Shown: in pieces, positions 18,654-56,584 of the stretch
Position numbering within the stretch: the stretch's first letter is position 1
How the letters are laid out: the number at the start of each line of letters is the position of its first letter
Source: Escherichia coli
GTDB taxonomy: Bacteria > Pseudomonadota > Gammaproteobacteria > Enterobacterales > Enterobacteriaceae
Strand: one strand, 5' to 3'
NCBI RefSeq assembly: GCF_001677475.2
Contig: NZ_CP015229.1
Length of the DNA: 64,000 nt
Made by a program: the position numbers and the translations under genes
The notes under the pieces: model-generated
The model's database searches: none
Told to the model about the DNA's origin: nothing
Seen by the model: the letters and a program-made list of their open reading frames with translations, nothing else

Positions 18654-18712
<59 letters not shown>

Positions 18713-18836
18713 TTGAACATGTGCCAGACGTTGGCGCAGCATTGCTTGGCAAATCCCTCCCTTCGTTTCCCCGCGATAATATGACCAACCTCTCATAATT
18801 TAAATTTACCCCGCTCTGGTGATTCTCAAACGCCAG

Positions 18837-18852
18837 ATGTTACCCGTATCAT
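18837..18852 (+). promoter_or_regulatory. GntR operator-like site 1 upstream of gntT
   Basis: ATGTTACCCGTATCAT (ATGTTA-N4-TAtCAT). Confidence 0.6.
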
Positions 18853-18977
18853 TCACATGGGTACCAAACATACTCCTGACATCTGACTACAATAATTAGT
18901 TTTAGTGGGTATCAGTCGTGGTGCCGCAATATCTCTGTTCCCGATTGGGATAATTAGAGTTTGTCGTCAGAAAATTG

Positions 18978-18995
18978 ACGTTACCCATAACAAAT
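18978..18995 (+). promoter_or_regulatory. GntR operator-like site 2 upstream of gntT
   Basis: ACGTTACCCATAACAAAT, same half-site pattern as site 1. Confidence 0.55.
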
Positions 18996-19012: not shown

Positions 19013-20329
19013 ATGCCATTAGTCATTGTTGCTATCGGTGTAATCTTGTTGTTGCTCCTGATGATCCGTTTCAAAATGAACGGCTTCATCGCTCTCGTCC
19101 TCGTGGCGCTTGCTGTTGGATTAATGCAAGGAATGCCGCTGGATAAAGTTATTGGCTCCATCAAAGCCGGTGTCGGCGGGACGCTCGGTAGCCTTGCCCT
19201 GATCATGGGTTTTGGCGCGATGCTGGGCAAAATGCTGGCAGACTGCGGTGGCGCACAACGTATCGCCACCACGCTGATTGCCAAATTTGGTAAAAAACAC
19301 ATCCAGTGGGCGGTGGTACTGACCGGTTTTACCGTTGGTTTTGCCCTGTTCTATGAAGTGGGTTTCGTGCTGATGCTGCCGCTGGTGTTTACCATCGCGG
19401 CTTCCGCGAATATTCCACTGCTGTATGTTGGTGTACCAATGGCGGCTGCACTGTCTGTGACCCACGGCTTCCTGCCACCGCATCCGGGTCCGACTGCGAT
19501 TGCCACCATTTTCAATGCCGATATGGGTAAAACTCTGCTGTACGGTACTATTCTGGCAATCCCGACCGTGATTCTCGCCGGTCCGGTTTACGCTCGCGTG
19601 TTGAAAGGTATCGATAAGCCGATCCCGGAAGGTCTGTACAGCGCGAAAACCTTCAGCGAAGAAGAGATGCCGAGCTTTGGCGTCAGCGTCTGGACCTCTC
19701 TGGTGCCGGTAGTGCTGATGGCGATGCGTGCGATTGCCGAAATGATCCTGCCGAAAGGTCACGCTTTCCTGCCGGTGGCAGAGTTCCTCGGTGACCCGGT
19801 AATGGCTACGCTGATTGCCGTACTGATTGCGATGTTCACCTTTGGTCTGAACCGTGGTCGTTCAATGGACCAGATTAACGACACGCTGGTTTCTTCGATC
19901 AAAATTATTGCGATGATGCTGTTGATTATCGGTGGTGGCGGTGCGTTCAAGCAGGTGCTGGTAGACAGCGGCGTGGACAAATACATTGCTTCCATGATGC
20001 ACGAAACCAACATTTCTCCGCTGCTGATGGCCTGGTCGATTGCTGCCGTACTGCGTATCGCGCTGGGTTCCGCAACCGTTGCGGCAATCACTGCGGGTGG
20101 TATCGCGGCACCGCTGATTGCAACGACGGGTGTTAGCCCGGAGCTGATGGTTATTGCGGTTGGTTCCGGTAGTGTGATTTTCTCTCACGTGAACGATCCG
20201 GGCTTCTGGCTGTTCAAAGAGTACTTTAACCTGACTATCGGCGAGACCATCAAATCCTGGTCGATGCTGGAAACCATTATCTCGGTGTGCGGTCTGGTAG
20301 GCTGTCTGCTGCTGAATATGGTGATTTGA
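19013..20329 (+). CDS. gntT: High-affinity gluconate transporter GntT (GntP family)
   Basis: 438-aa polytopic ORF downstream of two GntR operator-like sites. Confidence 0.95.
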   Translation: MPLVIVAIGVILLLLLMIRFKMNGFIALVLVALAVGLMQGMPLDKVIGSIKAGVGGTLGSLALIMGFGAMLGKMLADCGGAQRIATTLIAKFGKKHIQWAVVLTGFTVGFALFYEVGFVLMLPLVFTIAASANIPLLYVGVPMAAALSVTHGFLPPHPGPTAIATIFNADMGKTLLYGTILAIPTVILAGPVYARVLKGIDKPIPEGLYSAKTFSEEEMPSFGVSVWTSLVPVVLMAMRAIAEMILPKGHAFLPVAEFLGDPVMATLIAVLIAMFTFGLNRGRSMDQINDTLVSSIKIIAMMLLIIGGGGAFKQVLVDSGVDKYIASMMHETNISPLLMAWSIAAVLRIALGSATVAAITAGGIAAPLIATTGVSPELMVIAVGSGSVIFSHVNDPGFWLFKEYFNLTIGETIKSWSMLETIISVCGLVGCLLLNMVI

Positions 20330-33896: not shown

Positions 33897-34301
<405 letters not shown>

Positions 34302-34361
34302 TTATACATATCACTCTAAAATGTTTTTTCAATGTTACCCAAAGCGCGATTCTTTGCTAAT

Positions 34362-34379
34362 ATGTTCGATAACGAACAT
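34362..34379. promoter_or_regulatory. GlpR operator palindrome in the glpE/glpD divergent control region
   Basis: ATGTTCGATAACGAACAT, perfect inverted repeat, 34 bp upstream of glpD ATG. Confidence 0.7.
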
Positions 34380-34412
34380 TTATGAGCTTTAACGAAAGTG
34401 AATGAGGGCAGC

Positions 34413-35918
34413 ATGGAAACCAAAGATCTGATTGTGATAGGTGGCGGCATCAATGGTGCTGGTATCGCGGCAGACGCCGCTGGACGCGGTTTATCCGTGC
34501 TGATGCTGGAGGCGCAGGATCTCGCTTGTGCGACCTCTTCCGCCAGTTCAAAACTCATTCACGGTGGCCTGCGCTACCTTGAGCACTATGAATTCCGCCT
34601 GGTCAGCGAGGCGCTGGCTGAACGTGAAGTGCTACTGAAAATGGCCCCGCATATCGCCTTCCCGATGCGTTTTCGCCTGCCGCATCGTCCGCATCTGCGC
34701 CCGGCGTGGATGATTCGGATTGGTCTGTTTATGTACGATCATCTGGGTAAACGCACCAGCCTGCCGGGATCAACCGGTTTGCGTTTTGGCGCAAATTCAG
34801 TGTTAAAACCGGAAATTAAGCGCGGATTCGAATATTCCGACTGTTGGGTAGACGACGCCCGTCTGGTACTCGCCAACGCCCAGATGGTGGTGCGTAAAGG
34901 CGGTGAAGTGCTTACCCGGACTCGTGCCACTTCTGCTCGCCGCGAAAACGGCCTGTGGATTGTGGAAGCGGAAGATATCGATACCGGCAAAAAATTCACC
35001 TGGCAGGCGCGCGGCCTGGTTAATGCTACCGGCCCGTGGGTGAAACAGTTCTTCGACGACGGGATGCATCTGCCTTCGCCTTATGGCATTCGCCTGATCA
35101 AAGGCAGCCATATTGTGGTGCCGCGTGTGCATACCCAGAAGCAAGCCTACATTCTGCAAAACGAAGATAAACGTATTGTGTTCGTGATCCCGTGGATGGA
35201 CGAGTTTTCCATCATCGGCACCACCGATGTGGAATACAAAGGCGATCCAAAAGCAGTGAAGATTGAAGAGAGTGAAATCAATTACCTGCTGAAAGTGTAT
35301 AACGCGCACTTTAAAAAACAGTTAAGCCGGGACGATATCGTCTGGACCTACTCCGGCGTGCGCCCGCTGTGTGATGATGAGTCCGATTCGCCGCAGGCTA
35401 TCACTCGTGATTACACCCTTGATATCCATGATGAAAACGGCAAAGCCCCGCTGCTGTCGGTATTCGGCGGTAAGCTGACCACCTACCGCAAACTGGCGGA
35501 ACACGCGCTGGAAAAACTGACGCCATATTATCAGGGCATTGGTCCGGCGTGGACGAAAGAGAGCGTGCTGCCGGGCGGTGCCATTGAAGGCGACCGTGAC
35601 GATTACGCCGCGCGTCTGCGCCGCCGTTACCCATTCCTGACCGAATCGCTGGCACGTCATTACGCACGCACTTACGGCAGCAACAGCGAGCTGTTGCTCG
35701 GCAATGCAGGGGCGATAAGCGACCTCGGGGAGGATTTCGGTCATGAGTTCTACGAAGCGGAGCTGAAATACCTGGTGGATCACGAATGGGTCCGCCGCGC
35801 CGACGATGCCCTGTGGCGTCGCACAAAACAAGGAATGTGGCTGAATGCGGAACAACAATCTCATGTGAGTCAGTGGCTGGTGGAGTATACGCAGCAGAAG
35901 TTGTCGCTGGCGTCGTAA
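34413..35918 (+). CDS. glpD: Aerobic glycerol-3-phosphate dehydrogenase
   Basis: Track ORF 34398..35918; start at ATG 34413 (METKDLIVIGGGINGAGIA, FAD fold); 501 aa. Confidence 0.96.
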   Translation: METKDLIVIGGGINGAGIAADAAGRGLSVLMLEAQDLACATSSASSKLIHGGLRYLEHYEFRLVSEALAEREVLLKMAPHIAFPMRFRLPHRPHLRPAWMIRIGLFMYDHLGKRTSLPGSTGLRFGANSVLKPEIKRGFEYSDCWVDDARLVLANAQMVVRKGGEVLTRTRATSARRENGLWIVEAEDIDTGKKFTWQARGLVNATGPWVKQFFDDGMHLPSPYGIRLIKGSHIVVPRVHTQKQAYILQNEDKRIVFVIPWMDEFSIIGTTDVEYKGDPKAVKIEESEINYLLKVYNAHFKKQLSRDDIVWTYSGVRPLCDDESDSPQAITRDYTLDIHDENGKAPLLSVFGGKLTTYRKLAEHALEKLTPYYQGIGPAWTKESVLPGGAIEGDRDDYAARLRRRYPFLTESLARHYARTYGSNSELLLGNAGAISDLGEDFGHEFYEAELKYLVDHEWVRRADDALWRRTKQGMWLNAEQQSHVSQWLVEYTQQKLSLAS

Positions 35919-35925
35919 GGATGAT

Positions 35926-35948
35926 GCCCGGTTGAAGTGCAACCGGGC
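35926..35948 (+). terminator. Hairpin terminator after glpD (shared with convergent island operon)
   Basis: GCCCGGTTGaagtgCAACCGGGC followed by TATTTGG. Confidence 0.6.
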
Positions 35949-35969
35949 TATTTGGATTCCTTAGACTAT

Positions 35970-36575
35970 TTATTGTAAATAATTGAATAACGGCCCCTGA
36001 GCTAAAATCGCCAAACTTAAGCACGTTACCCACTCACCCCATTTCTGCCTCTGGCTTCTATTTTTGCTACACCAATGGCAATAATATCCCAATGCAAAAC
36101 CAACCTGTGCACTAATCGGGCCGACAAAATCAGTCCACGACTGCGGCCAAAAAGGGGAAAAATTCAGGGGAAGCCAGACAAACGTCAGAAAGAAATTTCG
36201 GATATTTTCCAGCAACGCTGATTTCTCTGGAGAAATATAAAGAATGAAATTCGAGAGAATTAACCAGAAATAGACCGGAGAAAAGACCAGCCAGCAATGC
36301 AGTCTGTTTTTTAATTCAGGAGGCGTTCTGCGGGAGAATTGCCAACCGATGCCCCACATTACACTGAAAAAAAATGCATATTCAACCATTAACTCAAGTT
36401 GTAATTCCTGAAGAGAAATACGCACAACCAGGAGCGGAAAGGAGAATGTTATTTCTGCCAGAAAAGTTAACGTGAATATAAGTACGGCTAAGACAATAAC
36501 CGTCGGCCATACCAATACTGGCACGATAACAAAACCGAGAATTACAGGGGGAATATAAAGCCGGAATTTAATCAT
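35970..36575 (-). CDS. Hypothetical small polytopic membrane protein (last gene of uncharacterised four-gene operon)
   Basis: 201-aa ORF with several hydrophobic helices; AGGAAA 7 nt upstream of ATG; 2-nt gap from the upstream gene's stop. Confidence 0.6.
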   Translation of the reverse strand: MIKFRLYIPPVILGFVIVPVLVWPTVIVLAVLIFTLTFLAEITFSFPLLVVRISLQELQLELMVEYAFFFSVMWGIGWQFSRRTPPELKNRLHCWLVFSPVYFWLILSNFILYISPEKSALLENIRNFFLTFVWLPLNFSPFWPQSWTDFVGPISAQVGFALGYYCHWCSKNRSQRQKWGEWVTCLSLAILAQGPLFNYLQ

Positions 36576-36577
36576 TT

Positions 36578-37345
36578 TTATTTTCCTGGTGATTCGGATG
36601 ATGCGTCATACATCGCGCATAAACACTCATCAATCATCCAGTCGTCTACCCAGACCTGATGCTGTGTACCCTGTTCTGGCTGCTTTGGTGGGTTCTCAAT
36701 CGCCTGCCGCGCGCGTTCTTTCAGGATGGATTGATTGTTGAAGGCCCAGGCATTGATTTGGGCGGTAATGGCATTATCGATATCGTCATGGTTATCTCTG
36801 ATATAACCTTCACGATACTGGTTCAATAAACAGGCAAGTGAAGCTGCCGACCAAAAGCCGGGAATTGAATTAACGGCATCAAGCAACGGCGCAATGGCGA
36901 TATCGGCACGGAAAAACATTTCCAGCATATACTGTAATTCGACAGCTTCATCGCCGGATACCCAATCAGCCATATACTGGCAGGCAAATCGCTGCAATAT
37001 TGCCCGTTCATCCGCACGCCAGTTTTCTTTGTTGGCAAGGTTGATACGGCGCAGAGAAAAAACTTCGTGAATATTGTCAAAATACCCCTGTGCAACAAAT
37101 TCCAGTAAACGCGGAAGAAAATAGCGGACCTCATCGCTATTTTGCGGATCGGGTCCTGGGCTACTATTCCAGGCATTGATTAAGGAATACGAGATCGCTC
37201 GTAACGATGTACTCCGTAATACCTTTTGTTCCTGCTGACTCAGGCAATATTCACAACAAACCACAAATTTCTGCGGCACCGGATAGCGACGAAAAATATG
37301 ATAAATCTGCTCAATTAATGCCTGCATGGCGGGGCTGGGTTGCAT
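36578..37345 (-). CDS. Hypothetical soluble protein (third gene of uncharacterised operon); start ambiguous
   Basis: Track ORF 36578..37372 (264 aa); preferred start is the ATG at 37343-37345 (MQPSPAMQALIEQ, 255 aa) preceded by GAGGGGG and 2 nt after the upstream stop. Confidence 0.55.
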   Translation of the reverse strand: MQPSPAMQALIEQIYHIFRRYPVPQKFVVCCEYCLSQQEQKVLRSTSLRAISYSLINAWNSSPGPDPQNSDEVRYFLPRLLEFVAQGYFDNIHEVFSLRRINLANKENWRADERAILQRFACQYMADWVSGDEAVELQYMLEMFFRADIAIAPLLDAVNSIPGFWSAASLACLLNQYREGYIRDNHDDIDNAITAQINAWAFNNQSILKERARQAIENPPKQPEQGTQHQVWVDDWMIDECLCAMYDASSESPGK

Positions 37346-37347
37346 AA

Positions 37348-38055
37348 TTACCCCCTCGCCCGCTGGTCGCATGTAAATGGTTGATAAACCAAACGAGCAT
37401 TCGCCGCATTCAGGCGAATAATGGCACTACGAGAGAGGGAAAAGCTGGGGCGAATGCAATAATTACAGTCCCGACAGCTATCCTCTGTGCAATTTTCCAC
37501 TGAGTAATGACGCGCGTAGAGTTTCAGTTCAGCCTGCTTATCGCGAAATCCGCGTAAACTGTTATCGCTATGAAATTTCCAGGCTTCTTTAAACACCTGA
37601 AAGATATAGACATCCTCAATCCAGGAGTCACATTTTTTAAGCGGGCGCTTTGCTATGATCACCCGCTCCGGGTTTAGCATCGCCGTAAAATGAACGGTGA
37701 AGTCATTTGTCGTATTCAGGTCACATTGAACATCTGGTACATCACTGATATAGGGGTCAAATCCAAAATCAGCACCACAGGCACAAAGACGACCGATCGT
37801 GGTGGTATCGAGGGAAAATCCCGGCCATACATTGCTGGACGTTAAGCCAATATTTAATGTGACATTATATCGAAGCAATCCCTCAAGACCGTCAGCACCG
37901 ACGAACTTTTCCCCTTCATCCAGGACCTGATTAATGAGTTGTTGAACAATACCTTCATCCCAGTATGCCGATTTGCAGTTGGCAATCGTAATATCCACGC
38001 CTGTGAAAGGATCAGTACCAGCGAGGCTTGCAAATAATGTATTAACTAATTCCAT
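37348..38055 (-). CDS. Hypothetical Cys-rich protein (second gene of uncharacterised operon)
   Basis: 235-aa ORF with 10 Cys including cluster C-x4-C-x2-C-x2-C (CTEDSCRDCNYC); 14 nt downstream of the first gene. Confidence 0.6.
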   Translation of the reverse strand: MELVNTLFASLAGTDPFTGVDITIANCKSAYWDEGIVQQLINQVLDEGEKFVGADGLEGLLRYNVTLNIGLTSSNVWPGFSLDTTTIGRLCACGADFGFDPYISDVPDVQCDLNTTNDFTVHFTAMLNPERVIIAKRPLKKCDSWIEDVYIFQVFKEAWKFHSDNSLRGFRDKQAELKLYARHYSVENCTEDSCRDCNYCIRPSFSLSRSAIIRLNAANARLVYQPFTCDQRARG

Positions 38056-38069
38056 TTTTATTACCCGCC

Positions 38070-39587
38070 TTAATGCAACGTTTTATACATCGGCACATAA
38101 CCCACGTCTTCTACCAAACTCTGCCCCTGCGGCGTTAAAAACCATTCAACCAGTTTTTGTGTTTCTGACGTCATATTTTCCCGCGTTACCATAAAGGCAT
38201 CGACGATATAGGGATATTTGCCATTGCGAATGTTTTCCGCAGTCGGTGCAATACCGTTAATCGCTAACAATTTGATATTCTTATCGGCATTCATTTGTGT
38301 TGCGTAATAGCGGAAGGTATAACCTATTGCGTTGTTTGTATTACGGTATTCGGCAACGACTTTAATCATTCCCTCCATCACACTTGCCACTTCGGTTTCC
38401 TGCGGCGAGATCATACGGACATTTTTCATGACCTGTAATTGCATCACCGTCTGACTGCCAGAGTCTTCCGGGCGTTGCCAGGTCTGGATCTCCTGATCGT
38501 TACCGCCAACAGTACGCCAGTTGGTAATTGCGCCACTAAAAATGTCTCGCACTTGTTGTTCAGTCAGGGAATTGACTGGATTATCAGCATTGACGATAAA
38601 AACAAATGCTTCACGGGCAAAGGGGGTGTACAGCAAAGTGACACCAGATTCCTTTGCACGTTTTTTCTGCCCACCGGAAGGTTGCGCCACGAAAATAATA
38701 TCAGCATCACCCTTAACGATTTTGTTATATGCTTCTGGCGTACGAGAGTTATCCAGATAATCCCAAACGTGAAAATCCTCTGGTATTATGCTTAACGCAT
38801 AAAAGGCAGAAGCATAAATTGGGTACGCCGCCGTGGCACCATCGATTCGCGGCCAGTTTTGCGTAAACTGAATTTGCGGTTTGCCACGCAGCGGCGTCAG
38901 TCGATTATTGAGTTTATCGGGTCGCCAGGCCCAGATATCAATATTTTCGCGTACACCAACACCAGGGTTTTGCTGCTTATATAAATGGGCCTGATACCCA
39001 GCGACAATACCAAGTAAGAGAAGTAGAAACAGGAGTAAGTTACGGCAACGTAGCCCGGACGTGCCGGTTAAAGGATGCCTTGTCGGCCAGCCGTATCCCA
39101 GCGAAAAACTGATATGCGTTCCAACGGGAATAATGACTATCCACCAGTACTCACCACCGACTAATGAGACTAACAAAACACCCAGCCAGGGAAGCATAAG
39201 ATCTGCCAACCAACCTGAAACCATCTGGCGAAATTGATAATCTGCCAGATGTAGCGTGATTATCCAGCCAACCAGGATTAATAAAGCAGGAACTAAAAAA
39301 AGACATTGTCGCCAGGCGGCTATTTCTCTGTTTTCTGGTGCGCTATCGCCCGCCCACACTCGCCCAGAGAAAAATAGCAGTAATGCGCCCAGCGTCAGCA
39401 TAAAGACGTTAAGTAGAAGATAAATTGTTGGCGTAAAGAGTAAATTGCAAAACTCAAGAATAGCGGCAAGCCCGGCCCCCAGCATGGCAATAACCGCCGC
39501 CAAAAACTGCGCCAGAATGGGGATGCCGAAAAAAGTCATTACCAGCGAGGTCAAAATCCATTTTCTGTTTTGCATTATTCTTTCCAT
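38070..39587 (-). CDS. Membrane-anchored PstS-like (PBP-like) substrate-binding-domain protein (first gene of uncharacterised operon); probably the intact form of K-12 pseudogene yzgL
   Basis: 505-aa ORF; N-terminal ~190 aa with multiple hydrophobic helices; C-terminal part with phosphate-binding-protein-like motifs (LTEQQVRDIFSGAITNWRTVGG); alternative start at Met5 (39575). Confidence 0.7.
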   Translation of the reverse strand: MERIMQNRKWILTSLVMTFFGIPILAQFLAAVIAMLGAGLAAILEFCNLLFTPTIYLLLNVFMLTLGALLLFFSGRVWAGDSAPENREIAAWRQCLFLVPALLILVGWIITLHLADYQFRQMVSGWLADLMLPWLGVLLVSLVGGEYWWIVIIPVGTHISFSLGYGWPTRHPLTGTSGLRCRNLLLFLLLLLGIVAGYQAHLYKQQNPGVGVRENIDIWAWRPDKLNNRLTPLRGKPQIQFTQNWPRIDGATAAYPIYASAFYALSIIPEDFHVWDYLDNSRTPEAYNKIVKGDADIIFVAQPSGGQKKRAKESGVTLLYTPFAREAFVFIVNADNPVNSLTEQQVRDIFSGAITNWRTVGGNDQEIQTWQRPEDSGSQTVMQLQVMKNVRMISPQETEVASVMEGMIKVVAEYRNTNNAIGYTFRYYATQMNADKNIKLLAINGIAPTAENIRNGKYPYIVDAFMVTRENMTSETQKLVEWFLTPQGQSLVEDVGYVPMYKTLH

Positions 39588-51288: not shown

Positions 51289-52629
51289 TTAACTCAACAG
51301 CTGGAAAGCAATCATCCCAACGATGGCACCGACAGTGCCGAGGATGGTTTCCATCATGGTCCAGGTTTTCAGTGTTTCGGCTTCAGTCGCGCCGGTAAAT
51401 TTACCGAACAACCAGAAACCGGCGTCGTTAACGTGGCTGACAACAATCGAACCACCGGCGATACAAATCGACAGCGCCGCCATTTGCGCACCGGAGTAGT
51501 TCAGTTGTTCAATAACCGGCATCACCAGTCCCACCGCCGTTAAACAGGCAACGGTGGCAGAACCCTGAATGATGCGCACTGCAGCTGCCAGCACGAAGCA
51601 GGTGATGGCAATCGGCAGGCCCATGCCGGTTAACGCTTCGCCCAGTGCCGGACCTACGCCAGAGTCAACCAGCACCTGTTTGAACACGCCGCCTGCACCA
51701 ATCACCAGCAGAATGATCCCCGCCGGTTGCAGCGCGTGACCACAAATTTCCATCACTTTGTCTTTTGGCATGCCCTGACGCATTGCCAGGCCATAAATTG
51801 CTACCAGACAAGCAACCAGAATCGCAGTAAACGGATGACCGATAAACTCAAACCATTCGTAAGCAGTTGATCCTTCTGGTACAAAACGCGCGGCAATGGT
51901 TTTAAGCCCTACCAGTACCAGCGGCAGCAGGATCAGCGACAGGCTAAATCCGAAAGATGGCATTTTGCCTTCACCGAGATGCGGTTCGCTGATGTCGTCA
52001 GGAATATGCAGCTCAACGTAACGGCTGATGAAGTTACCCCACAGCGGCCCGGCAATAATCATTCCCGGAATTGCCGCACACAGGCCAATCAGGATCATCC
52101 AGCCAAAATCGGCGTTCATCTGCGATGCCAGCAGCATTGGCGCAGGTCCAGGCACCAGGAATGCCGCCGCTGCCGCCACGCCTGCGAATAATGGGATTAC
52201 AAGCTTCACCAGGTTCGTACCGGTGTGGCGCGCCATTGAGAAAGCAACGCTAATCAGCAGAACAATCGCCACTTCAAAGAACAGCGGTAGTGCACAGACC
52301 AGCCCCGCAAGGCCGATGGCATAATGCGCGCGGCTGTGACCGAAGGATTTGAGCATTTTGACGGCAATCTGATCGACTGCGCCGGTTTCATGTAAGATCT
52401 TGCCAAACATAGCTCCCAGGGCGACAACCACCGCCAGGAAGCCGAGGGTGCCTCCCATCCCTTTTTCCATCGTCGCTGCGATTTTATCGAGCGGCATACC
52501 GGAAAAAAGGCCAGCCCCCATGGACACCACCATTAAAGCCAGGAAAGCGTGCATACGCGCCTTCATGACTAAAAACAGCAGCAGTAAAACAGACCCTACT
52601 GCTGTTAAAACAAGCGTTAATGTAGTCAC
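51289..52629 (-). CDS. gntU: Low-affinity gluconate transporter GntU (GntP family)
   Basis: 446-aa ORF, paralogous to gntT in this window, downstream of gntK. Confidence 0.93.
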   Translation of the reverse strand: MTTLTLVLTAVGSVLLLLFLVMKARMHAFLALMVVSMGAGLFSGMPLDKIAATMEKGMGGTLGFLAVVVALGAMFGKILHETGAVDQIAVKMLKSFGHSRAHYAIGLAGLVCALPLFFEVAIVLLISVAFSMARHTGTNLVKLVIPLFAGVAAAAAFLVPGPAPMLLASQMNADFGWMILIGLCAAIPGMIIAGPLWGNFISRYVELHIPDDISEPHLGEGKMPSFGFSLSLILLPLVLVGLKTIAARFVPEGSTAYEWFEFIGHPFTAILVACLVAIYGLAMRQGMPKDKVMEICGHALQPAGIILLVIGAGGVFKQVLVDSGVGPALGEALTGMGLPIAITCFVLAAAVRIIQGSATVACLTAVGLVMPVIEQLNYSGAQMAALSICIAGGSIVVSHVNDAGFWLFGKFTGATEAETLKTWTMMETILGTVGAIVGMIAFQLLS

Positions 52630-52632
52630 TAC

Positions 52633-53160
52633 TTATTTGCCTTTTTTAATAACCTCGATGGTGCTTGCCACAACACCTTCCAGCGGTTGATCGATATCCA
52701 CCACCAGTACATCGGTTTCGTCCGCACCCGGCTCCTGCAGCGTTTCAAACTGCGTCACCAACATTTGGGTTTTAAAGAAATGGCCTTTGCGCGCTTTCAG
52801 GCGGCTTTCAATCACATCAAAATCGCCTTTCAGGTAGATGAACGAGAGATTCGGATTACCTTCACGCAGCAAGTCGCGATAGTGTTTTTTCAGTGCAGAA
52901 CAGACGATCAGCGACACTTTATTGGTGCGCTGCATAGCAAACGCGGCGTCGTTCAGCGCCTGCAACCACGGTTTGCGATCGTCGTCATTCAGCGGTTCAC
53001 CAGACGCCATTTTTTCGATATTGCGCCGTGGATGGAGGAAATCGCCATCAAGAAACGCGGCATGAAGTTGATGCGCCACTTCACTGGCGACCGCAGATTT
53101 GCCGCTGCCCGATACGCCCATCAGAACGTAAATGTGGTGATCATGGTTAGTCGTGCTCAA
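52633..53160 (-). CDS. gntK: Gluconokinase GntK
   Basis: Track ORF 52633..53181; start is a TTG at 53158-53160 giving 175 aa (xSTTNHDHHIYVLMGVSGSGKS, P-loop). Confidence 0.92.
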   Translation of the reverse strand: MSTTNHDHHIYVLMGVSGSGKSAVASEVAHQLHAAFLDGDFLHPRRNIEKMASGEPLNDDDRKPWLQALNDAAFAMQRTNKVSLIVCSALKKHYRDLLREGNPNLSFIYLKGDFDVIESRLKARKGHFFKTQMLVTQFETLQEPGADETDVLVVDIDQPLEGVVASTIEVIKKGK

Positions 53161-53190
53161 AGTGGTGCCCCCACAATACAAGAATTAAAA

Positions 53191-53220
53191 ATGTTACGGG
53201 TAACTGTTATCGGTAACATT
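53191..53220. promoter_or_regulatory. Tandem GntR operator-like sites in the gntKU promoter
   Basis: ATGTTACGGGTAACTGTTATCGGTAACAT, two overlapping ATGTTA-N4-TAACAT-type sites 30-60 bp upstream of the gntK TTG start. Confidence 0.6.
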
Positions 53221-53298
53221 GTCCAGCCGGACAATATCAGAAGCAATATCCATCCGTGCCTTAAGTGTATAAGTGTGAGCTACTTCAAATTTGTAGGC

Positions 53299-54294
53299 TT
53301 AAATAGATCCGCCCGGTGACAAGGTGAAACCTAAATCTAACATTTTCGGTGTCACAGATTCGCCACGAATACGCGCCAGCAGGCGTTCAGCGCCAATACT
53401 GCCCATCCGCTCACGCGGCGTCAGTACGCTCGCCAACCGTGGTTCCATCACCTGACCAATGTCATGACCATGGAAACCGGCAATCGCCATATCGTCAGGA
53501 ACTTTCAACCCCAGACGCTGGCATTCAAACGCCGCGCCGACTGCCAGGTCATCATTAGTACAGAACACGCCATCCAGCTGCGGATATTCCCGCCTCGCCT
53601 GGCGAATCAGTTCAATACCGGAAGAGTAAGAAGAAGATTGCTCAACCATCACGCTATATGGCACCAGGCCTGCATCCAGCATCGCCTGTTCGTATCCCTT
53701 CTGTTTGATGATAGTACGTTCGTCGAGACGTGCGCCGAGATAGGCAATGTGGCGATGCCCGCGAGCAATAATGGCGGTGGTCATCTGCCGTGCCGCTTCA
53801 AAGTTATCAAAACCGACGGCGATATCGAGGCACGGCGACTGGCTGTCCATCAACTCCACCACCGGGATCCCCGCCACTTCAATCATCTTTAAGGTGCGCG
53901 GCGTGTGGGTACGTTCGGTGAGGATCAGTCCGTCGATATTCCATGAGAGCATTGATTCGAGGCGTTCTTGCTCCATTTCCGGTTTATAACCGTAGTGGGC
54001 CAGCATGGTCTGATAACCGTGCGCGTCGGTGACGCTTTCGATTCCGCGTAATACTTCCGCGAAAACCTGGTTGGTGAGAGAAGGTAACAGGACGCCAATC
54101 GCCCGGCTGGTGGCGTTAGAGAGGATATCGGGCGCACGATTGGGAATATAGCCCAGTTCATCAAGAGCGGCGGCAATCTTGCCGCGTAGAGCGACGGAAA
54201 CCTGCTCCGGGTTGCGTAAAAAACGGCTGACCGTCATTTTGGTCACGCCTACACGGTCAGCCACATCCTGAAGTACGGGTCTTTTCTTTTTCAT
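53299..54294 (-). CDS. gntR: GntR, LacI-family gluconate repressor
   Basis: 331-aa ORF; N-terminal LacI-type HTH (VLQDVADRVGVTKMTVSR). Confidence 0.95.
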   Translation of the reverse strand: MKKKRPVLQDVADRVGVTKMTVSRFLRNPEQVSVALRGKIAAALDELGYIPNRAPDILSNATSRAIGVLLPSLTNQVFAEVLRGIESVTDAHGYQTMLAHYGYKPEMEQERLESMLSWNIDGLILTERTHTPRTLKMIEVAGIPVVELMDSQSPCLDIAVGFDNFEAARQMTTAIIARGHRHIAYLGARLDERTIIKQKGYEQAMLDAGLVPYSVMVEQSSSYSSGIELIRQARREYPQLDGVFCTNDDLAVGAAFECQRLGLKVPDDMAIAGFHGHDIGQVMEPRLASVLTPRERMGSIGAERLLARIRGESVTPKMLDLGFTLSPGGSI

Positions 54295-54517
54295 CGTCCT
54301 GAAGGTACAAAAGAGATAGATTCTCTTAGTTTAACACGGACGCCTCAGAACCTTCCCGGGGAAAACAGTGCTTGTTTACAATTATTAGATATACACTAAA
54401 TCAATTGCATCGCATTGTGCTAACGACGCGGCAAAACCCCGGAAGCGTACATCAGCACGCGACCGGAGCGAGCGAGGAAGCCTGCAAAAAGGCAGGCTTC
54501 AAAGATGCCGTTGAGTT

Positions 54518-56373: not shown

Positions 56374-56494
56374 GATTTCGTCCTTTTTAAGGTGATTATT
56401 TACACCTTAGCGCAAAGCGGACGTGGTTCCTACTGGAGTGCGCATAACGAACACAAGCACTTCCCGTGGATAAATTGAAAACGAAAGATCAAAA

Positions 56495-56584
56495 AAAAGC
56501 CAGCACCCGGCTGGCTAAGTAATACTGGAAGCAATGTGAGCAATGTCGTGCTTTCAGGTTCTCCGCGAGGGTCTTCCTGATCGC
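56495..56584 (-). ncRNA. ryhB: RyhB small RNA (Fur-repressed iron-sparing sRNA)
   Basis: Minus-strand sequence reads GCGATCAGGAAGACCCTCGCGGAGAACCTGAAAGCACGACATTGCTCACATTGCTTCCAGTATTACTTAGCCAGCCGGGTGCTGGCTTTT, matching RyhB as I recall it, ending in a GC-rich hairpin plus U-tract. Confidence 0.9.

Follow-up and report, generated by a model that had tools for sequence, protein, structure and literature searches.

The control of gntT and gntKU by the gluconate repressor GntR has been described since the late 1990s; it is held in regulon databases and has been exploited in synthetic biology. The K-12 gntT promoter, with two GntR operators and a CRP site, is credited in later papers to Peekhaus and Conway (1998) and Porco et al. 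(1997), and the overlapping GntR sites of K-12 gntKU are credited to Izu et al. (1997) and Tsunedomi et al. (2003). Two GntR sites and a CRP site are likewise listed for gntTp in bioRxiv 10.1101/2024.12.09.627516. At E. coli gntKU, overlapping sites about 13 bp apart are described as functional, and more than half of the gamma-proteobacterial operons regulated by GntR conserve overlapping sites with this spacing (PMC4052901). Expression of gntR has been reported to be constitutive.

The action of GntR has been demonstrated in several settings. In MG1655-derived strains, GntR represses reporters driven by PgntT, PgntK and PidnK more than 5-fold, and loss of gntR leads to more gntT, gntK, gntU and idnK transcript (PMC13386637). 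In a purified cell-free system, a sigma-70 promoter fitted with ATGTTACCCGTATCAT, termed ‘the E. coli GntR operator’, is repressed by GntR and de-repressed by gluconate (bioRxiv 10.1101/2023.01.10.523462). In human cells, gluconate-sensitive binding of GntR has been obtained with ATGTTACCGATAACAG, referred to as the ‘gluconate transport operon’ site, and with the consensus ATGTTACCCGTAACAT; deletion of the site, or insertion of 2 bp at its centre, abolishes the response (PMC10450161).

GntR and its operators are similar to LacI/GalR/PurR-type systems in several respects: a helix-turn-helix (HTH) joined to a periplasmic-binding-protein fold, 16-bp palindromes with a C/G-rich centre, a main operator borne by the promoter with an auxiliary one downstream, and release by an inducer, here a sugar acid. 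Overlapping sites with an offset of 13–14 bp are typical of the GntR group, unlike LacI itself (PMC4052901).

The DNA considered here (the window) is a stretch of 64,000 nucleotides from E. coli that shares 97–98% identity with K-12 MG1655 and about 91% with E. albertii. It carries, in order, igaA/hslO, nfuA-gntT, the mal, glp and glg genes, gntU-gntK-gntR and ryhB. Four imperfect 16-bp palindromes at gntT and gntK are, with a probability of about 95%, GntR operators acting in classical negative control, where binding, repression and release are taken from the literature. Because published work used these exact sequences as GntR operators, this interpretation is established knowledge; control of gntT and gntKU by GntR via these operators is already known, down to individual bases. 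The main value of the analysis is as a positive control, in which a true regulon, spread over two loci 34 kb apart, was recovered from the DNA sequence alone. It also makes a small addition of comparative data: the operators are invariant while their layout varies between families of the Enterobacterales, which could guide work on how the downstream gntT operator acts.

The repressor and its operators in the window

The gluconate genes of the window are the following.

19013-20329, plus strand: gntT, high-affinity gluconate transporter (Pfam GntP_permease; NCBIfam equivalog NF011560, 931 bits)
51289-52629, minus strand: gntU, low-affinity gluconate transporter, 3' of gntK (NCBIfam equivalog NF007781, 915.8 bits)
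52633-53160, minus strand: gntK, gluconokinase, first gene of the gntKU unit (NCBIfam equivalog NF008583)
53299-54294, minus strand: gntR, LacI-family gluconate repressor (Pfam LacI and Peripla_BP_1/3; NCBIfam equivalog NF011563, 776.7 bits)

The NCBIfam equivalog assignments of GntT, GntK and GntU are consistent with the RefSeq annotation of matching E. coli genomes, the gntT start codon is the ATG at 19013, and the gntK start codon (TTG at 53160 on the minus strand) agrees with the K-12 annotation.

The initial annotation had assigned the open reading frame at 53299-54294 to a LacI-type GntR, and the domain evidence confirms this. A LacI HTH at residues 8–52 is followed by a sugar-binding domain matching Peripla_BP_1 and Peripla_BP_3 (Pfam), and the protein scores 776.7 bits with the NCBIfam equivalog model of the gluconate repressor GntR, well above the cut-off of 433. 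It is therefore correctly placed in the LacI family as opposed to the winged-helix GntR/FadR/HutC family; the latter is named after Bacillus subtilis GntR, and the two have nothing in common beyond the name and the gluconate theme. The nearest solved structure is 3h5o, ‘Transcriptional regulator GntR’, followed by CcpA, PurR, RbsR and LacI; the matches to 3h5o, CcpA, PurR and LacI are full-length. The 331 residues of GntR align to residues 4–316 of the 360 in LacI. Whereas LacI itself possesses a C-terminal tetramerisation helix, GntR ends at residue 331, and in the alignment to LacI neither a tetramerisation helix of this type nor an extension matching the LacI tail was found. GntR may nevertheless form a surface contact of the GalR type.

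Four sites at gntT and gntK had been noted previously as sharing the pattern ATGTTA-N4-TAACAT. All four are present where the initial annotation had placed them and fit the pattern with one or two mismatches. The pattern was there called a half-site, a term which does not hold: each site is a whole palindrome made of two half-sites. The constraint extends to positions 7 and 10, and the motif is therefore better written ATGTTAC-N2-GTAACAT, with ATGTTACCGGTAACAT as the ideal site. The sites are given below, with mismatches counted against ATGTTA-N4-TAACAT and with scores from a weight matrix built from 26 distinct sites outside the window; these came from the gntT loci of other genera and from the edd and idn sites of K-12.

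18837-18852: gntT operator O1, ATGTTACCCGTATCAT, one mismatch, 24.4 bits (rank 1 in the window)
18978-18993: gntT operator O2, ACGTTACCCATAACAA, two mismatches, 17.9 bits (rank 3 in the window)
53191-53206: promoter-proximal gntK operator, ATGTTACGGGTAACTG, two mismatches, 16.8 bits
53204-53219: promoter-distal gntK operator, CTGTTATCGGTAACAT on the plus strand and ATGTTACCGATAACAG on the gntK strand, one mismatch, 21.7 bits (rank 2)

Against the 14 defined positions of ATGTTAC-N2-GTAACAT, O1 has one mismatch, O2 three and each of the two gntK operators two. The two-base centres (CC in O1, CC in O2, GG at 53191-53206 and CG at 53204-53219) are C/G-rich, as for operators of the LacI/GalR type. 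The gntK operators are offset by 13 bp and share 3 bp. Outside the window, the K-12 edd promoter carries ATGTTACCGGTAAAAT, which fits ATGTTAC-N2-GTAACAT, and in K-12 the motif is also found at the first codons of edd and in the spacer between idnD and idnK. These edd and idn sites are the sole matches with at most two mismatches to ATGTTA-N4-TAACAT in the two 12-kb K-12 regions scanned.

Counting matches in the 64-kb window gives a strong signal at high stringency and a weak one when the stringency is relaxed. With at most one mismatch to ATGTTA-N4-TAACAT there are two matches where 0.10 are expected, a number reached in none of 100 shuffles; with at most two mismatches there are five where 1.67 are expected, and three of 100 shuffles reach five. 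At the latter threshold the match count alone is thus only marginal, and weak, evidence. It is position that is decisive: four of the five matches fall within the 496 bp that make up the nfuA-gntT and gntR-gntK spacers (Poisson P about 1e-9), and a chance origin is rejected because of this clustering in the two spacers of the gluconate genes. A motif search with a GntR matrix, proposed as a check in the initial annotation, bears the sites out. The top scores in the 64 kb are those of the four sites (24.4, 21.7, 17.9 and 16.8 bits), the fourth being level with a match at 2207-2222; in shuffled windows the mean best score is 12.1 bits, and 0.05 matches of at least 16.8 bits are expected. The training sites from other genera are related by descent to those of the window and are not fully independent of them, while edd and idn are independent loci.

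Two further matches were considered as GntR sites and rejected. The fifth pattern match, ATGTTATACATATCAC at 34299-34314 in front of glpD, scores 8.0 bits and has an A/T-rich centre; it is not regarded as a GntR site because it reads TGTTA-N6-TCACT, of the CRP type, about 63 bp upstream of the inferred glpD start. The match at 2207-2222, TTATTAACGGTAACAA, equals the weakest true site at 16.8 bits, is internal to the hslO coding sequence and away from any promoter, and is probably due to chance. The matrix was also applied upstream of gntR, where no GntR-type site scores above 2 bits. Autoregulation of gntR was rejected on this ground, and the absence of such a site fits the constitutive expression reported for the gene.

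The glpD promoter region (34299-34380) contains several elements of its own. The CRP-type TGTTA-N6-TCACT occupies 34300-34315, an isolated GntR-like half-site, ATGTTACC, is present at 34332-34339, a -10-like TAATAT at 34358-34363, and a palindrome resembling a GlpR operator, ATGTTCGATAACGAACAT, at 34363-34380.

Promoter architecture at gntT and gntK

The elements identified in front of the two transcription units, besides the operators, are as follows.

18780-18795, plus strand: CRP-like site TATGA-N6-TCTCA, centred at -71.5 from the inferred gntT start point, its exact position being inferred
18823-18852, plus strand: probable gntT core promoter, with -35 TTCTCA at 18823-18828, an 18-nt spacer and -10 TATCAT at 18847-18852
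53274-53289, minus strand: putative CRP-like site TTTGA-N6-TCACA (read on the gntK strand), one mismatch to TGTGA-N6-TCACA

TTCTCA-18-TATCAT is the sole consensus-like promoter detected on the gntT strand in a promoter scan. Its -10 hexamer is formed by the final six bases of O1, and TATCAT has been named as the -10 in bioRxiv 10.1101/2023.01.10.523462. Transcription of gntT probably starts near 18859. Relative to this inferred +1, O1 is centred at about -14.5 and O2 at about +127.5; O2 thus belongs to the 5' leader, where it spans about +120 to +135, 20–35 nt upstream of the gntT ATG. Peekhaus and Conway reportedly placed the first operator on the -10 and the second some 120 bp beyond the start point, which agrees with the present count. 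As at other promoters controlled by repressors of the LacI/GalR type, an operator sits directly on the core promoter of gntT, where O1 includes the -10; for gntK the corresponding overlap is an inferred one. In E. coli, no remnant of a tandem second site was detected beside O1, nothing there exceeding 2 bits in the matrix scan.

Between nfuA and the gntT promoter, at 18676-18713, there is a REP-like palindromic element, GCCCGATGCGACGCTAAAGCGTCATTTCGGGCCTAC. It is also found, with few changes, in the divergent allele of this spacer that is described below.

The gntK operator pair is located 31–59 bp upstream of the start codon, the promoter-proximal site taking up the 31–46 bp interval. A simple promoter scan found no consensus promoter on the gntK strand. 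When the DNA is read by eye, TTGTCC-17-GATAAC appears as a candidate core promoter under the operator pair; with this assignment the two operators would fall at about -20 to -5 and -7 to +9, and the CRP-like site at 53274-53289 would be near -82.5 of the gntK start point.

Conservation and layout of the operators in the Enterobacterales

All four operators are identical in E. coli K-12 MG1655. At gntT, the window is the same as K-12 from upstream of the CRP-like site to the start codon, with the same O1 16-mer, the same TATCAT, two GntR sites and one CRP site; a few differences are present farther upstream in the nfuA-gntT spacer. At gntK, the 29-bp block containing both operators, ATGTTACCGATAACAGTTACCCGTAACAT, and its 13-bp offset are identical to those of K-12, and the only differences in the gntR-gntK spacer are two substitutions farther upstream. 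Among 5,424 complete E. coli genomes, the best identity is 98.9% for the gntU-gntK-gntR segment (52600-54400) and 99.8% for the gntT region.

In about 920 of the 5,424 complete E. coli genomes the nfuA-gntT spacer is divergent, only 84–86% identical to that of the window, although the NfuA and GntT proteins encoded on either side are identical. In two genomes with this allele, O1 and O2 are unchanged and the directly flanking bases are altered; at the divergence of the allele, 32 unchanged positions have a chance of about 0.004. The divergence of the spacer, approximately 16% against about 5.6% overall in the adjoining nfuA coding sequence, is close to the expectation for synonymous sites. The allele was considered as an anomaly and this was rejected, since its divergence matches the synonymous-site expectation for nfuA; for the same reason it seems to be an old allele which requires no special event.

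A wider comparison was made by scanning one genome per species that encodes GntT, which yielded 80 loci. In 29 of these, from Escherichia, Salmonella, Citrobacter, Enterobacter, Klebsiella, Kluyvera, Kosakonia and related genera, O1 is exactly ATGTTACCCGTATCAT and is accompanied by another motif site at -34/-35 from the ATG; this distal site is ACGTTACCCATAACAA in 24 of the 29. When the gntT loci of 27 Enterobacteriaceae species were aligned with the window, to which their median identity is 64%, the long invariant blocks comprised O1, 14 of the 16 positions of O2, the CRP half-sites, the -35 and the ribosome-binding region. Within the CRP-like site the invariant bases are TGA and TC.CA, and within the -35 they are TT.-.CA.

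The separation of the two gntT operators is far less constrained. Start-to-start distances of 133, 136, 139, 140, 141, 143, 144 and 147 bp occur in the Enterobacteriaceae, and in Escherichia sp. ESNIH1 and Pseudescherichia vulneris, where the leader is shorter and both sites are kept, O1 and O2 are only 65 bp apart. Across the Enterobacteriaceae loci, no conserved helical phase between O1 and O2 was found. In Phytobacter, a MAG and Enterobacter sp. Bisph1, a third O1-like site (G, C or T followed by TGTTACCCGTATCTT) is located 120 bp upstream of O1, at about -294 to -298 from the gntT ATG, and resembles a duplicated promoter-operator block.

Other families of the order exhibit a different layout. 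In Yersinia, Serratia, Rahnella, Dickeya, Pantoea, Erwinia, Mixta and related genera, two overlapping sites in tandem, offset by 14 bp (for example ATGTTACCGGTATCATGATACCGGTAACAA), are located 114–274 bp upstream of gntT; among the gntT loci of the 80-locus scan, those with a tandem pair have no distal site near the ribosome-binding site. The motif of these sites in Yersiniaceae, Erwiniaceae, Pectobacteriaceae and related families, which represent RegPrecise-type regulons (PMC4052901), is that of the window, the first site of the pair also contains TATCAT, and GntR orthologues of 63–80% identity are encoded beside them. The Enterobacteriaceae, including the window, differ in two ways: they combine O1 with a distal O2, and their gntT is apart from gntRKU, while neither is true of the tandem-pair genera. 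In many of the latter genomes gntT adjoins gntK and gntR, so that one operator cluster serves genes which in the window are split over two loci. The E. coli gntK pair, with its 13-bp offset, is laid out like the tandem gntT pair of these other genera. Since the tandem pair is found where gntT adjoins gntK and gntR, the layout appears to have changed once gntT became a separate locus.

Mode of repression and competing explanations

The initial annotation had concluded that one GntR controls both gluconate loci; the identity of the operators to those of K-12, together with published repression data, supports this. In the absence of gluconate, GntR dimers would be bound to the operators. At gntT, a dimer on O1 would cover the -10 TATCAT and so exclude RNA polymerase, while O2, in the leader at about +127 and beside the ribosome-binding site, would serve as an auxiliary operator which strengthens repression, either by cooperation with O1 or by blocking elongation. 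At gntKU, two dimers on the overlapping operators would lie over the likely core promoter and start point and thereby block initiation. Gluconate, on binding to the sugar-binding domain, releases GntR, and cAMP-CRP acting at the sites upstream of both promoters would provide catabolite control and activation.

For the contribution of O2, more than one mechanism is conceivable. As GntR has no tetramerisation tail and the O1–O2 distance is not conserved in phase, a tetramer loop in the style of LacI finds no support here. O2 could instead act on its own, as a roadblock to elongating RNA polymerase or through coupling to translation initiation, rather than in a phase-dependent loop with O1. This is put forward tentatively and is judged unlikely; it is suggested by the fixed position of O2 at -34/-35 from the ATG, by an O1 distance that drifts over more than one helical turn, and by the missing tail.

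It may also be asked whether O2 is an operator at all. It is transcribed, it lies 20–35 nt upstream of the ATG at a distance that is fixed across genera while that to O1 varies, and it is the poorest palindrome of the four, off at three of 14 positions; it might thus have been conserved for a role in the gntT mRNA leader, as a structure or translation signal, and not as a DNA operator. However, the predicted fold of the leader is unremarkable (z = -1.1), leaves O2 mostly unpaired and is accompanied by no Rfam family match in the leader. The extent of the invariant block is that of the 16-bp operator motif, the score of O2 with a GntR matrix derived from outside the window (17.9 bits) exceeds the mean best of shuffles, and gntTp has been counted with two GntR sites (bioRxiv 10.1101/2024.12.09.627516). 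A role confined to the mRNA is on balance very unlikely, and O2 is best regarded as an auxiliary GntR operator.

Two further rivals concern the identity of the regulator and the reality of the motif. The sites might be read mainly by the paralogue IdnR (GntH), or be common to both proteins, in which case they would belong to a two-regulator network and not to a single repressor. For the window's GntR, the IdnR model ranks second among the NCBIfam matches, which indicates close paralogy; the motif also recurs in the idnD/idnK spacer, and work cited in PMC4052901 indicates that IdnR sites are recognised by GntR and that GntH acts negatively on GntI genes. Nevertheless, IdnR is not encoded in the window; the gene beside the gntK operators passes the GntR model and reaches only 402.8 bits with that for IdnR, below its cut-off of 500; and published reporter and cell-free experiments demonstrate that GntR alone represses through these sequences. 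Control chiefly or jointly by IdnR is accordingly considered very unlikely, and cross-talk with IdnR/GntH would add a layer to GntR control, not replace it. As for the notion that these are chance AT-rich palindromes in promoter DNA with no common regulator, it could draw on the marginal raw count at two mismatches (five against 1.67, with three of 100 shuffles reaching five) and on the two other matches, of which that at the glpD promoter fits CRP better and that in hslO lies inside coding sequence. It is already refuted by conservation and published functional data: the gntT sites are kept across genera against a background identity of 64%, and the same 16-mers have been used experimentally as GntR operators. 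Clustering at the two gluconate loci (P about 1e-9) and recurrence of the motif at edd and idn also speak against it. Negative control by GntR through the four operators remains the preferred reading.

Two other features of the window were noted. A segment of about 3.4 kb that follows glpD, at 35918-39353, is absent from K-12 MG1655; in an E. coli urine isolate matching the window around gntT, glpD is directly followed by a hypothetical protein gene and two genes for PstS-family phosphate-binding proteins. The small RNA RyhB, at 56491-56555 on the minus strand, is the sole Rfam family to reach its gathering score in the window.
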